From a virus (Duplodnaviria; Heunggongvirae; Uroviricota; Caudoviricetes), in IMG/VR virus record IMGVR_UViG_2728369185_000004: a DNA stretch of 8,416 nt. The stretch is one strand, 5' to 3'. Below are positions 1 to 5,072 of the stretch, in pieces. A program made the translations under genes and the position numbers. The number at the start of each line of letters is the position of its first letter. The first letter of the stretch is position 1. The notes under the pieces are model-generated. The model did not search any database, was not told the origin of the DNA, and saw only the letters and a program-made list of their open reading frames with translations.

Positions 1-408
1 GCACATCAGCAAAACGCTATTCACGCAGTACAGCAAATCCTTCCAGACCCAACCAAACCAATCGTAGTAACCATTCAGGAACGCAACCGCAGCTTAGACC
101 AAAACAGGAAGCTATGGGCCTGCTTAGGTGACGTCTCTCGTCAGGTTGAATGGCATGGTCGCTGGCTGGATGCAGAAAGCTGGAAGTGTGTGTTTACCGC
201 AGCATTAAAGCAGCAGGATGTTGTTCCTAACCTTGCCGGGAATGGCTTTGTGGTAATAGGCCAGTCAACCAGCAGGATGCGTGTAAACGAATTTGCGGAG
301 CTATTAGAGCTTATACAGGCATTCGGTACAGAGCGTGGCGTTAAGTGGTCAGACGAAGCGCGACTGGCTCTCGAATGGAAAGCGCGATGGGGAGATCGGG
401 CTGCATGA
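1..408 (+). CDS. ninB: NinB (lambda Orf-family recombination protein), 5' end outside window
   Basis: Frame-1 translation from base 1 (AHQQNAIHAVQQILPDPTKPIVVTIQERNRSLDQNRKLWACLGDVSRQVEWHGRWLDAESWKCVFTAALKQQ...[11 protein letters not shown]) matches lambda NinB almost residue for residue as I recall it. Stop TGA 406-408 overlaps the next ATG at 405-407 (ATGA). Confidence 0.9.
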   Translation, partial: AHQQNAIHAVQQILPDPTKPIVVTIQERNRSLDQNRKLWACLGDVSRQVEWHGRWLDAESWKCVFTAALKQQDVVPNLAGNGFVVIGQSTSRMRVNEFAELLELIQAFGTERGVKWSDEARLALEWKARWGDRAA

Positions 409-932
409 CTATCAAATCAAATACGCCAGCACACGACAAGGACTGCTGGCAAACGCCGCTTTGGCTTTTTGATGCACTGGATATTGAGTTTGGATTCTGG
501 CTGGATTCGGCAGCGAGCGACAAAAATGCTCTGTGCGCTCACTGGCTAACTGAGGACGACGACGCGCTCAATTCTGAGTGGGTAAGCCACGGTGCAATCT
601 GGAATAACCCACCGTACAGCAATATCAGGCCGTGGGTGGAAAAAGCCGCTGAGCAGTGTATACAACAGCGACAGACGGTAGTGATGCTTGTGCCAGAGGA
701 TATGTCTGTCGGATGGTTCAGCAAGGCTCTGGAGAGTGTTGACGAAGTTCGTATTATCACTGATGGACGGATTAATTTTATCGAACCATCGACAGGGCTG
801 GAGAAGAAGGGAAACAGCAAAGGCTCCATGCTGCTGATTTGGCGACCGTTCATCAGTCCTCGACGGATGTTTACTACCGTATCCAAAGCGGCATTGATGG
901 CGATCGGGCAGGGCGTCAGGAGGGCTGCATGA
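405..932 (+). CDS. Phage Dam-like DNA N6-adenine methyltransferase (orphan, no cognate nuclease seen)
   Basis: 175-aa product from ATG 405 ([26 protein letters not shown]...) with catalytic NPPY motif (WNNPPYSN) typical of N6-adenine methyltransferases. Sits between ninB and ninE; ATGA start/stop overlaps on both sides. The ORF-track start at 345 is an upstream in-frame extension overlapping ninB. Confidence 0.8.
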
Positions 933-1105
933 GACGACAGCGACGAAGCATCACCGACATAATCTGCGAAAACTGCAAATACCTTCCAACGAAACGCTCC
1001 AGAAATAAACGCAAGCTAATCCCAAAAGAATCTGACGTAAAAACCTTCAATTACACAGCCCACCTGTGGGATATCCGGTGGCTAAGATATCGTGCGAGGA
1101 AATGA
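929..1105 (+). CDS. ninE: NinE
   Basis: [58 protein letters not shown] closely matches lambda NinE. ATG 929 overlaps the methyltransferase stop (ATGA). The track ORF from 839 is an in-frame upstream extension. Confidence 0.85.
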
Positions 1106-1449
1106 CAATGGATTATTCACAGTTAAGTGATTTTGAAATTAACAGAATGGTAGGAGACATAATTTTTAAAGGCCTTTGGGCAAGTAAACCGGAAACATCA
1201 GGGAATAACACCAACAAATGGTATTACGGAAATGCTGATACAACTTTTGAGCCATTCAATCATTTGCCTGACTACTGCAATGATCCGAGCGCTTCATGGC
1301 CGATTATTGAGAAATACAGGATTTCTATCTTAGACCAGTTAACTGAATGGTGTGTGGATGCAAAAGGCGTAAGCCCAATATTTGATACCAGACCTCTCCG
1401 CGCCGCCATGATTGTCTTTCTCCTGATGCAGGAGGCCAATAATGCTTAG
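1102..1449 (+). CDS. Conserved nin-region protein of unknown function, NinX-like by position (between ninE and ninF as in P22)
   Basis: 115-aa ORF from ATG 1102 ([19 protein letters not shown]...), start overlapping the ninE stop (ATGA). Assignment is by synteny and recollection of nin-region proteins, not sequence identity I can verify. Confidence 0.55.
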
Positions 1450-1636
1450 CCCATCTCAATCCCTTCAATACCTGAAAGAAAGCATAGAGCGGGCTTCAAT
1501 GTGCACAGAGTGGATTCTATCTAGGTTTAGCGCATACAGAAGATTGCCGGTAAAGGGCATGCCAAGCAAGTCGATGCTGCATATGCAAAAGAATGCGCGC
1601 TGGAAGGTATGGCGAGAACACAGGTTATGTGGCTGA
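1442..1636 (+). CDS. ninF: NinF-like N-terminus with divergent, probably non-native C-terminus (chimeric or disrupted ninF)
   Basis: First ~18 residues [18 protein letters not shown] match lambda NinF ([18 protein letters not shown]...). The rest lacks the NinF Cys-rich motifs, and the ORF ends 20 nt before rusA instead of overlapping it. Confidence 0.4.
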
Positions 1637-1659
1637 AAGAGGGGGTTATTAAGGCGTGA
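1531..1659 (+). pseudogene. ybcO: 3' remnant of a ybcO-like (DUF1364) gene in frame 1, lacking a start
   Basis: Frame 1 after stop 1528-1530 reads ...[27 protein letters not shown] and ends at TGA 1657-1659, overlapping the rusA GTG at 1656 (GTGA). This matches my recollection of the K-12 YbcO C-terminus. There is no in-frame start until ATG 1609. Confidence 0.4.
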
Positions 1660-2018
1660 ATACCTACAGCATCACATTACCCTGGCCTCCGAGCAATAAT
1701 CGCTATTACCGCCATAATCGCGGGCGCACGCACGTCAGCGCAGAGGGGCAGGCATACCGCGATAACGTCGCCCGAATCATTAAAAACGCAATGCTGGATA
1801 TCGGCCTAGCTATGCCTGTGAAAATCCGCATTGAGTGCCACATGCCGGATCGCCGTCGCCGTGACCTGGATAATCTGCAAAAAGCCGCTTTTGACGCACT
1901 CACTAAAGCAGGTTTCTGGCTGGATGATGCTCAGGTCGTTGATTACCGCGTTGTGAAGATGCCTGTTACCAAAGGTGGGAGGCTGGAACTGACCATCACC
2001 GAAATGGGGAATGAATGA
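1656..2018 (+). CDS. rusA: RusA Holliday-junction resolvase
   Basis: 120-aa product (start shown as M, codon is GTG) [119 protein letters not shown] matches E. coli RusA. Purine-rich RBS (aaagaggggg) upstream. Confidence 0.9.
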
Positions 2019-2155
2019 TGTTTGAGTTTAATATGGCAGAACTTCTTCGCCACCGCTGGGGGCGTCTGCGCTTATATCGTTTCCTCGGTTCTGTTTTGAC
2101 CGATTACCGAATACTGAAGAATTACGCCAAAACCCTGACAGGAACAGGAGTATGA
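2015..2155 (+). CDS. ylcG: Small protein YlcG-like (46 aa), below the ORF-track size cutoff
   Basis: Manual translation from ATG 2015: [46 protein letters not shown], stop TGA 2153-2155. Start overlaps the rusA stop (ATGA). Matches my recollection of DLP12 ylcG between rusA and Q. Confidence 0.55.
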
Positions 2156-2240
2156 AGTCAGAGATAACAATCAACTAATACTGTTTTGTTGATTTTTGCT
2201 TGTAATTGGCGTTCTGGTCTGATTTTTGTGGAGTAAGTTG

Positions 2241-2624
2241 ATGCGTGATATTCAGATGGTTCTTGAGCGTTGGGGTGCGTGGGCGGCTAATAATCATGAA
2301 GATGTGACCTGGTCGTCCATTGCCGCCGGCTTTAAGGGATTAATTCCTTCAAAAGTAAAATCTCGCCCGCAATGTTGTGACGATGACGCGATGATCATTT
2401 GCGGGTGCATGGCCCGTCTGAAAAAGAACAACAGCGATTTACACGATTTATTAGTAGATTATTATGTATGTGGTATGACATTCATGTCACTGGCAAGTAA
2501 GCATTGCTGCTCGGATGGTTATATCGGGAAAAGGTTACAGAAGGCTGAGGGCATAATTGAAGGGATGTTAATGGCATTAGATATCCGGTTAGATATGGAT
2601 ATCGTTGCTAATAATTCTAATTGA
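2241..2624 (+). CDS. quuD: Late-gene antiterminator Q (phage 82/21 type)
   Basis: 127-aa product from ATG 2241 ([34 protein letters not shown]...[16 protein letters not shown]...) matches DLP12 QuuD / Q82-family. GGAG RBS at 2229-2233. The track ORF start at 2226 is an extension. Confidence 0.85.
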
Positions 2625-2761
2625 TATGCAATTGTTTACTAAAAGTTATTAAAAATGGGGCGTGGAAACGCCCCCAAAATAAAGGGTAATATATAACAGA
2701 AGGTTTATATAGTAAGAAGCAAGGTAGTGCTTCTAAAGGAAGTGGCTTGAGGGCTCCACTT
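2625..2761 (+). promoter_or_regulatory. Candidate late promoter PR-prime / qut region immediately downstream of Q
   Basis: Position by analogy with lambda and phage 82, where PR-prime and the Q-utilisation site directly follow Q; AT-rich. I could not place the -35/-10 hexamers confidently. Confidence 0.35.
2645..2675 (-). terminator. Candidate intrinsic terminator read on the minus strand
   Basis: Perfect hairpin GGGGCG-TGGAAA-CGCCCC (2657-2675); on the minus strand it is followed by ATTTTTAATAAC. It could instead be an RNA structure in the plus-strand late leader. Confidence 0.35.
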
Positions 2762-2802
2762 ATATGTTGCGGAGGCAAAGCCTCCCGCAACATATCTTTT
2801 TC
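2762..2802 (+). terminator. Rho-independent terminator candidate (tR-prime-like), 18 nt beyond the porin stop
   Basis: Long stem atatgttgcggagg / cctcccgcaacatat with loop caaag, followed by CTTTTT on the plus strand. Confidence 0.5.
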
Positions 2803-2812
2803 GTAAGTCAGA

Positions 2813-3678
2813 TTAGAACTGATAAACCAGACCTACAGCGACGATGTCGTCGGTATCAATACCAGCTGTTTTGGTAAACTTACTATCGTCAATTAAGTTG
2901 ATTTTGTAATCAACAAAAGTGGACATGTTTTTATTAAAGTAGTAAGTAGCACCGACATCGACATACTTGACTAAGTCTCGGTCACCATGAACACCAAGGT
3001 CTTTACCTTTTGACTGAAGGTAAGCAACAGATGGACGCAGACCGAAGTCAAACTGATATTGTGCTACTGCTTCAAAGTTTTGTGCTTTGTTTGCAATATG
3101 GTTATTACCAAAAACGGTCATATTCTGAGTTTCAGAATATGTGGTAGCCAGATAGATATTGTTCGCATCATATTTCAGGCCTGCAGCCCATACTTCCGCA
3201 TTTTTGCCGGAGGCATTGAATTTGCTCTTACCATAGGCGACCTGACCGTCAGTGCGATCTGATTTAGCATAGGTTGCACCCACGCCGAATCCTTCATACT
3301 CATAAGTAGTGGAGAAACCGAAACCATCACCATTGGCTTCAGTTACGTCAGTGCGGTCATTTTTACCCTGATACTGAGCAGCAAAGTTCAGGCCATCGAC
3401 CAGACCAAAGAAGTCGTTGTTACGATAAGTTGCAACACCAGTAGTGCGACCAGTCATGAACACATCTGTTTGGGTCCAGGTATCACCACCGAATTCTGGC
3501 AGAACGTCAGTCCACGCACCGATGTCGTATGCTACACCGTAGTTACGGCCGTAATCGATTGAGCCGTAATCACCAAATTTCAGGCCTGCAAATGCAAGAC
3601 GGGTTTTGTCTTTGGAAGAACCTTGAGATTCAGCACGGTTGCCTTTGAATTCATATTCCCACTGACCGAAACCAGTCA
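2813..3678 (-). CDS. nmpC: OmpC/NmpC-family outer-membrane porin, 3' end intact, 5' end runs into the N gap
   Basis: Minus-strand translation is continuous from 3678 to stop at 2813: ...[80 protein letters not shown]...AVGLVYQF, with hallmark porin motifs and the C-terminal YQF. The track start at 3463 is an internal GTG. About 70 N-terminal residues including the signal peptide are unaccounted for. Confidence 0.85.
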
Positions 3679-3771
3679 NNNNNNNNNNNNNNNNNNNNNN
3701 NNNNNNNNNNNNNNNNNNNNNNNNNNNNNNNNNNNNNNNNNNNNNNNNNNNNNNNNNNNNNNNNNNNNNNN
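3679..3771. other. Run of 93 N (unresolved or masked sequence)
   Basis: Literal n characters in the sequence, interrupting the porin 5' region. Confidence 1.
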
Positions 3772-4197
3772 TGTACGCCCTTTTTTTGAACTATTATTAA
3801 AAAATGATGTCACTGCGCGATAAATATTCATCTAATCAATGTGATTATTTCAAGATGTAAGTTTTAGTTTCTCATTTAATTTGTGAAGTAGATCTCTATT
3901 TTTATCTGAACCTTTTCTATCTAATCCTATTCATGGCTCTTGTCTGAACAAAAATAAATCTATTAGCTAATTTATATTAATGGCACTTATTTATAAGTGC
4001 TCTATAATTCTTTAGCTTAATTTAAACAAACTAAAAATAACATCGGAAATTATTAACTGGTTATTTGTTGAAGTTTTCTTATGCATTTGTGGTGGTGTTT
4101 TGAACACTCGGTGGCATTCTCACAAATATCATTTAGTAGTTTACGTACGTAAAAAATTGGTTATGCTGTTAAGAGTGGTTACTTCGTCACACAGCTT

Positions 4198-4228
4198 AAA
4201 CCCGCCGTCGAGCGGGTTTTTCCATTTT
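4198..4228 (+). terminator. Rho-independent terminator candidate upstream of the lysis cassette
   Basis: Hairpin AAACCCGC-cgtcga-GCGGGTTT followed by TTCCATTTTTT on the plus strand. Confidence 0.5.
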
Positions 4229-4359
4229 TTGAGTCTCGATATTAGCTGATAACCCAATACCTGAGTTATTCACTGACTCCGAATCTGTTACGTTTCTGCC
4301 TTTATTGCGATACGTAGTATCCCCTTAATTTACACCCGCTTTGTCTGCGAGGTGGGGTT

Positions 4360-4575
4360 ATGAAATCCATGGATAAGTTAACAACGGGTGTCGCCTATGG
4401 TACCTCAGCAGGTAGTGCCGGGTACTGGTTTTTACAGTTGCTCGATAAAGTCACGCCCTCACAGTGGGCGGCAATAGGTGTGCTGGGTAGCCTGGTATTT
4501 GGCCTGCTGACGTACCTGACAAACCTTTATTTCAAGATTAAAGAAGATAAGCGCAAGGCTGCGAGAGGTGAATAA
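4360..4575 (+). CDS. essD: Class II pinholin, phage 21 S-type, dual start (antiholin from Met1, holin from Met4)
   Basis: [71 protein letters not shown]: two TM segments plus a charged C-terminus, matching S21. RBS gaggtgggg at 4349-4357. Confidence 0.9.
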
Positions 4576-5072
4576 TGCCTCCATCATTACGAAAAGCCGT
4601 TGCTGCTGCTATTGGTGGCGGAGCAATTGCTATAGCATCAGTGTTAATCACTGGCCCAAGTGGTAACGATGGTCTGGAAGGTGTCAGCTACATACCATAC
4701 AAAGATATTGTTGGTGTATGGACTGTATGTCACGGGCATACAGGAAAAGACATCATGCTCGGTAAAACGTATACCAAAGCAGAATGCAAAGCCCTCCTGA
4801 ATAAAGACCTTGCCACGGTCGCCAGACAAATTAACCCGTACATCAAAGTCGATATACCGGAAACAATGCGCGGCGCTCTTTACTCATTCGTTTACAACGT
4901 GGGTGCTGGCAATTTCAGAACATCGACGCTTCTTCGCAAAATAAACCAGGGCGATATCAAAGGCGCATGTGATCAGCTACGTCGCTGGACATATGCTGGC
5001 GGTAAGCAATGGAAAGGTCTCATGACTCGTCGTGAGATTGAGCGTGAAATCTGTTTGTGGGGTCAGCAATGA
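4575..5072 (+). CDS. rrrD: SAR endolysin (signal-anchor-release lysozyme, phage 21 R-type)
   Basis: N-terminal Gly/Ala-rich SAR segment ([20 protein letters not shown]) followed by a T4-lysozyme-like catalytic region (E...D...T spacing, ...[25 protein letters not shown]...). ATG 4575 overlaps the holin stop TAA. Confidence 0.9.

Follow-up and report, generated by a model that had tools for sequence, protein, structure and literature searches.

Genomic setting of the ninX–rusA interval

The sequence analyzed here (the window, by which we always mean the whole stretch of 8,416 nt) covers the nin region and the late region of a lambdoid Escherichia coli prophage. It was 99.9% identical to a CFT073 prophage over positions 1–3678 and 3772–4576, and the section from 1380 to 1700 was 100% identical to CFT073, Nissle 1917, UTI89, APEC O1, and many others. 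Gene order was based on the PGAP annotation together with a listing of open reading frames (ORFs), and all feature coordinates are collected in Table 1. Between the intact ninX and rusA genes we found the 5' end of a P22-type ninF (segment A), an orphan sequence (segment B), and the 3' end of a ybcO gene (segment C). The arrangement is widespread: it was carried by 583 out of 5,426 complete E. coli genomes (∼11%; CFT073, Nissle 1917, and UTI89 are among them) and by 27 phage records (among them mEp332 and PhiR11_1, with E. coli K-12 MG1655 given as host, the ev and Lambda_ev series, and PhiR57_1). Its presence in both sets indicates that the junction is compatible with a working phage.

Further downstream, a run of 93 Ns (3679–3771) interrupts the porin gene on the reverse strand (ompC/nmpC-like, from 2813). 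The run reflects either masking or a gap in the assembly; it replaces 217 nt of CFT073, including the 5' end of the porin gene, which is why the porin ORF appears truncated.

Table 1. Features of the ninX–rusA interval and its neighbors (window coordinates)
Feature	Position	Strand	Remarks
ninB	ends 408		PGAP/ORF listing
Phage N-6-adenine methyltransferase gene	405–932		PGAP/ORF listing
ninE	929–1105		PGAP/ORF listing
ninX	1108–1449	+	Intact, precedes the putative scar; Pfam Phage_P22_NinX, E = 1e-16; PGAP NinX family protein
Shine-Dalgarno AGGAGG	1430–1435	+	6 nt ahead of ATG 1442; read from the sequence
Chimeric 64-codon ORF, frame 2	1442–1636	+	ninF 5' end, orphan segment, and out-of-frame ybcO; ORF listing, translation
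Segment A	1442–1498	+	First 19 codons of P22-type ninF; 8-nt overlap with the ninX stop (ATGCTTAG)
Conserved block AAGAAAGCrTmGAGCGGGCTT	1476–1498	+	Common to P22, lambda, and the Stx1-phage remnant; five-sequence alignment, pairwise displays
Segment B	1499–1569	+	71-nt orphan sequence in place of the NinF Cys-rich core; matches neither the A nor the C parent
B/C joint GTCGATG	1570–1576	+	CGATG common to both parents; microhomology of at most 5–7 nt
ybcO 3' remnant (DUF1364, His-Me finger nuclease)	1570–1659	+	Frame 1, 29 codons and TGA; no start codon
rusA ribosome-binding site AGGGGG	1640–1645	+	3 nt past the frame-2 stop; the site annotated at 1121–1126 in phage 82 record X92588
rusA	1656–2018	+	Intact Holliday-junction resolvase gene; Pfam RusA, E = 7e-23; PGAP
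ylcG	2015–2155		PGAP/ORF listing
quuD	2241–2624		PGAP/ORF listing
Porin gene (reverse strand), then lysis genes, bor, and nu1	after quuD		PGAP/ORF listing

A P22-type ninF start without the NinF core

The frame-2 ORF opens at ATG 1442 and ends with TGA 1634–1636, leaving 20 nt before the rusA GTG at 1656, the spacing that had been read from the sequence alone in a first-pass annotation. Its AGGAGG stems from the P22-type ninX/ninF junction, a region near-identical to P22. This near-identity to P22 ninX–ninF runs from 1380 or earlier to ∼1498 (GAGCGGGCTT) and then falls to chance, both in pairwise displays and in an alignment of five sequences. At the protein level, 17 of the first 22 residues matched P22-type NinF (tblastn), and the NinF family PHROG 672 aligned with residues 1–22 only (E = 3.6e-4). 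The first-pass annotation had likened the start of this frame to lambda NinF; the resemblance to NinF is real, but P22 fits much better. The lambda NinF leader differs, reading VIDQNRSYEQESVERA... (VIDQNRSYEQ...), which makes P22 and not lambda the right comparator, and a blastn comparison with lambda ninF at a word size of 7 gave no DNA match.

The same annotation had described a loss of the Cys-rich NinF signature past this start, and here it was correct. Pfam PF05810, a model of 25 positions that all lie in the Cys-rich zinc-ribbon-like core, recovered both P22 NinF (50.4 bits, E = 2e-13) and lambda NinF (47.5 bits, E = 1.6e-12) and found nothing in the 64-aa ORF even at E ≤ 10. The ORF thus has the P22-type N-terminal leader and the position overlapping the ninX stop that mark a NinF, and lacks the Cys-rich core. 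One IMG/VR locus had TCCCTTCAA three times in tandem within the ninF leader, versus once in the window (1458–1470).

The switch from A to B falls inside the 23-nt block at 1476–1498. Judging from the alignments, this block is the likely A/B exchange zone, and a switch at such a place fits exchange through short homology.

Segment B and its two contexts

The only relative of segment B that we found is an unannotated, decayed ninF remnant that follows ninE in Stx1-converting phages (AU6Stx1 and SH2026Stx1) and is 88% identical over window positions 1476–1576. Remnants of this Stx1 type were present in about 250 complete E. coli genomes. An exact-pattern scan with the B core hit E. coli only among GTDB species representatives, and in IMG/VR it returned 118 loci with two contexts only: a P22-type 5' end followed by B and the ybcO remnant, as in the window (82 loci), and a lambda-type 5' end followed by B and AU6-type downstream sequence (36 loci). 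The lambda-type loci carried TAA at codon 4 in 32 cases out of 36 and GTA in place of the GTG start in 13 out of 36. Searches for an intact parent of segment B, comprising tblastn against phages at E ≤ 10, a word search of 5.8 billion proteins, HMMER on 1.84 billion representatives, and the GTDB and IMG/VR pattern scans, led back to the same two contexts.

We also noted several features of the Stx1-type remnant and its surroundings. In Stx1 phages such as AU6Stx1 its start has changed from GTG to GTA and a CAA codon to TAA, and the ORF was still open in only four of the 36 IMG/VR copies. The remnant adjoins AT-rich sequence and then a 590-aa gene on the reverse strand without known function, beyond which a 201-aa HNH endonuclease gene overlaps ninG. 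Derivation of the window from an AU6Stx1-like arrangement through a simple deletion was considered and rejected, as the AU6Stx1 downstream order is HNH-ninG-ninH-Q and not ybcO-rusA.

Two origins are conceivable for segment B, a ninF core in an advanced state of decay or the margin of an insertion that has nothing to do with ninF. The first of these possibilities would simplify the history of the locus: B would be a very diverged or decayed ninF core, the A/B switch an ordinary homologous exchange between ninF alleles, and the 7 nt at 1570–1576 the only truly illegitimate joint. B does occupy the place of the NinF core in both of its contexts (behind a P22-type 5' end here and a lambda-type one in Stx1 phages), the first codons past 1498 are still NinF-like (ERASMCTEW vs. 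ERALTCANC), and the A/B switch lies in a block conserved in all alleles. However, local (Smith-Waterman) alignment of 1499–1569 with the ninF cores of P22 and lambda gave no signal (947 and 530, respectively, of 1000 dinucleotide shuffles reached the observed score), no intact Cys-containing intermediate allele turned up in the phage tblastn, word, or HMMER searches, and in Stx1 phages the remnant borders a gene inserted on the reverse strand, an insertion of which B could instead form the end. We regard a ninF ancestry of segment B as a possibility worth keeping, though a doubtful one.

Frames 1 and 3 of B are interrupted by stop codons. The window and the Stx1 remnant differ at 12 sites in this segment, distributed 5:3:4 over the codon positions of frame 2, with eight altering the amino acid, a pattern that speaks against selection on that frame. 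A frame-3 resemblance to the NinF core (LQCAQSG vs. LTCANCG) was discarded as a coincidence of a TGTGCA string.

Segment B also occurs in derived defective prophages. In some, the first 33 codons of a lambda-type P are fused to the end of B (…KPQV|…; E. coli GCA_016114165.1, 3001–3183; proteins P0011–P0015), and in others the partner joined to the end of B is a 434-type cro or a different cro 5' end. These fusions delete the remainder of P, ren, and everything from ninB to ninX, and rusA-ylcG-Q stay downstream.

The B/C joint and the ybcO remnant

The window and PhiR34_1, a phage with an intact ybcO, share 100% identity starting exactly at 1570 and continuing through rusA, and ahead of 1570 they agree no better than by chance. 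The orf96-rus region of phage 82 likewise matches from 1570 (91.5%), and the match to the AU6Stx1 remnant stops at 1576. On the pattern of these matches, B and C meet in an illegitimate joint at microhomology scale.

Downstream of the joint, frame 1 encodes the end of YbcO. The tail corresponds to residues 67–96 of the 96-residue YbcO structure 3g27 (E = 7e-13) and to positions 62–92 of the 92 in Pfam YbcO PF07102, where it scored 17.7 bits against a cut-off of 29.9. A YbcO-like C-terminus had been placed in this frame from 1531 onward; the tail holds up in these comparisons, but its similarity begins at 1570, and the 13 residues of frame 1 encoded by 1531–1569 matched nothing. In-frame stops lie upstream at 1522–1524 and 1528–1530, and the ORF listing contained no frame-1 ORF of at least 30 aa for the remnant. 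It therefore lacks both an open frame with a start codon and the full domain of about 92 positions with its Cys/His metal-binding and catalytic part. What it retains of a ybcO gene is the synteny with rusA-ylcG-Q and the 3' end, whose TGA (1657–1659, by frame-1 translation) overlaps the rusA GTG in a GTGA, as had been noted from the sequence at the outset. The same coupling geometry had been reported at four other junctions of the operon. An NTGA overlap does recur, but at exactly three (405–408, 929–932, and 2015–2018), and the remaining operon junctions are near-overlaps.

PGAP annotates 1570–1659 as a DUF1364 domain-containing protein, "incomplete; missing N-terminus", and as a pseudogene. 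Several otherwise full-length ybcO alleles in other E. coli (P0017–P0020) contain frameshifts or internal deletions, which implies that ybcO is often inactivated in prophages.

Evolution of the chimeric reading frame

We compared selection on the chimeric ORF with that on its neighbors from the distinct variant sites found among 65 colinear loci of IMG/VR that carry the junction. The ORF had 13 non-synonymous and four synonymous variants, a pN/pS of 0.83 that comes from only 17 sites, some of them imported through recombination from intact ybcO alleles. The flanking genes were far more constrained (ninX, 11 non-synonymous and 13 synonymous, pN/pS 0.21; rusA, 25 and 37, pN/pS 0.20), and the contrast reached p = 0.013 against rusA and p = 0.015 against ninX and rusA combined (Fisher). 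As a separate observation, ylcG had 22 non-synonymous and nine synonymous variants in the same 65 loci (pN/pS 0.77; p = 0.007 vs. ninX and rusA), so this tiny annotated gene may be under little constraint too.

The product itself has few relations. The ORF belongs to no Pfam or NCBIfam family and has no PDB relative, with the proviso that the NCBIfam scan is uninformative, since none of the four proteins submitted gave a match, genuine NinF and YbcO included. The last 21 residues of the product come from ybcO in the wrong frame, and the same tail recurs in P0017–P0020. An exhaustive HMMER search with the 64-aa product against 1.84 billion cluster representatives returned 12 matches, all of them copies or derivatives of the junction or the rare open Stx1-type ORF (P0022). 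Database versions of the product range from 54 to 85 aa, owing to frameshifts, loss of the stop codon, and exchange of the 3' end. In four variants (P0002, P0008, P0009, and P0010), unrelated sequence follows RRLPV, SMLHM, or REHRL, and two of them share a 23-residue tail; this suggests that insertions, possibly of IS elements, have struck several places a short distance before rusA.

Could the fusion nevertheless have given birth to a genuine new small-protein gene that is kept by selection? Such a gene would be expected to look in part as this ORF does: it has a strong AGGAGG with a 6-nt spacer and an ATG, its 64-codon frame was open in 22 out of 22 IMG/VR haplotypes, it is present in ∼11% of complete E. 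coli genomes, and several phage and protein records name it "protein ninF". An open frame in all haplotypes is expected at five or fewer substitutions per copy, however, though weak selection on the ORF may still be at work. The near-neutral pN/pS relative to the flanking genes, the many length variants, the out-of-frame C-terminus, the restriction of family similarity to the first 22 residues (PHROG 672), and the lack of any homologue beyond near-identical copies among the 1.84 billion representatives all argue against a selected gene, which we consider very unlikely. The first-pass annotation had named conservation of the full-length product as a family in other phages as the finding that would speak against a broken junction. 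Full-length versions do occur elsewhere, but all are one allele (≥97.7% nucleotide identity) that evolves near-neutrally, which does not make a gene family of the product. The ORF is probably translated, because the P22-type AGGAGG is kept 6 nt before its ATG, and its product would be non-functional, making it a junk ORF.

Consequences for the rusA start

The ribosome-binding site and start of rusA are identical to those of phages with an intact ybcO; the site is unchanged because the sequence from 1570 is that of such phages. The first-pass annotation had proposed a possible effect on translational coupling into rusA. Relative to an intact ybcO, the arrangement of the sequence predicts that ribosomes no longer reach the GTGA overlap in the ybcO frame. 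Those translating the junk ORF would stop at 1634–1636, 3 nt short of the rusA ribosome-binding site. A fold of 1560–1700, in which we sought structure occluding that site, was no more stable than shuffled sequence (z = +0.54). No Rfam family reached its gathering score in a scan of the whole window, and a promoter and terminator consensus scan of 1000–2300 placed no site within 1442–1659. One could speculate that the 64-aa ORF is an expressed small protein, or a translated leader that sets the level of RusA during lytic growth, and that ∼11% of E. coli genomes have come to use the scar as a coupling device; we give this idea hardly any credence.

Origin and annotation of the locus

We interpret 1442–1659, with considerable confidence, as a recombination scar, that is, a mosaic-junction pseudogene of three pieces (A-B-C) in which P22-type ninX-ninF has been joined to a ybcO-rusA module. 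Two properties of a mosaic-junction pseudogene were found here: abrupt switches in identity (P22 to ∼1498, the Stx1 remnant over 1476–1576, and PhiR34_1 from 1570) and selection that is relaxed in comparison with the neighboring genes (17 sites). Neither NinF nor YbcO can be made from it. This agrees with the central claim of the first-pass annotation, a recombination scar directly upstream of rusA that left neither gene intact, and the PGAP pseudogene call at 1570–1659 supports it independently. The scar is ordinary and common, and existing annotation already treats the ybcO half as a pseudogene.

The number and place of the breakpoints had been seen differently. A simple two-part deletion or recombination junction between ninF and ybcO at 1500–1530 is refuted by the pairwise identity profiles and almost certainly wrong: resemblance to NinF does end at ∼1499, and frame 1 has no stop from 1531 on, but ybcO identity begins only at 1570, with PhiR34_1 and phage 82 matching at chance upstream, the 71 nt in between have a separate relative in Stx1 phages, and PGAP, too, begins its DUF1364 fragment at 1570. 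Because 1499–1569 is a third type of sequence, the out-of-frame ybcO joint lies at 1570–1576.

The three-piece scar would have arisen as follows. A P22-type ninX-ninF module was presumably joined to a ybcO-rusA-ylcG-Q module of the phage 82/DLP12 type, with the ninF start and first 19 codons retained. The NinF zinc-ribbon core would have been swapped for the 71-nt segment B, which also survives as the decayed Stx1-phage remnant, and B would have been fused out of frame, at a microhomology of no more than 5–7 nt, to the last 30 codons of ybcO. The ninF Shine-Dalgarno and ATG would still drive translation of the 64-codon junk ORF, and rusA would rely on its own unchanged ribosome-binding site, possibly aided by ribosomes released nearby, and not on the ybcO stop/start overlap. 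The scar is presumably tolerated because the phage can do without ninF and ybcO, and it would have spread through descent and recombination. Lambdoid phages are known to swap segments with defective prophages via short or diverged homologies, including in the non-essential nin region (PMC3945230).

As a well-preserved intragenic mosaic joint, the locus carries little biological weight, and its practical value lies in annotation. PGAP bacterial records leave the 64-aa ORF uncalled and give the DUF1364 pseudogene only. RefSeq phage records (NC_049949.1, 41367–41561; NC_049953.1) and several NCBI protein records call the ORF "protein ninF" although the PF05810 domain is missing in its entirety; some phage records have it as "hypothetical". 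The ybcO fragment is flagged as a pseudogene in bacterial records only. Furthermore, the exact GTCGATG joint offers a convenient lineage marker for this prophage module in, for example, CFT073, UTI89, and Nissle 1917.

Comparison with known systems

The ninF half of the scar resembles P22/lambda NinF (PF05810, PHROG 672) in lying directly after ninX with the same 8-nt overlap and Shine-Dalgarno, in addition to the 17 residues shared with P22 NinF. It differs in having no CxxC...CxxCC core, running instead into orphan sequence and then into out-of-frame ybcO.

The other half corresponds to DLP12 YbcO and phage 82 orf96 (PF07102, 3g27). The last 30 codons are 91%–100% identical in DNA, the GTGA overlap with rusA is the same, and rusA-ylcG-Q follow, whereas the scar has lost residues 1–66 together with the start codon and has stops upstream in frame. 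Those residues hold most of the Cys and His, including CHDEID, and are presumed to form the metal-binding and catalytic part. YbcO/DUF1364 has been classed as a His-Me finger (HNH) domain protein that is commonly found beside rusA and Q (PMC5714182).

The remnant of AU6Stx1 and SH2026Stx1 shares segment B with the scar, and the Cys-rich core is absent there as well. In contrast to the scar, it has a lambda-type 5' end, and on its 3' side stand the AT-rich region and the reverse-strand 590-aa gene, not ybcO.

Most surviving lambdoid mosaic joints fall at gene boundaries. The scar joint lies inside two genes, and it probably survives only because both are dispensable. [quoted passage not shown]
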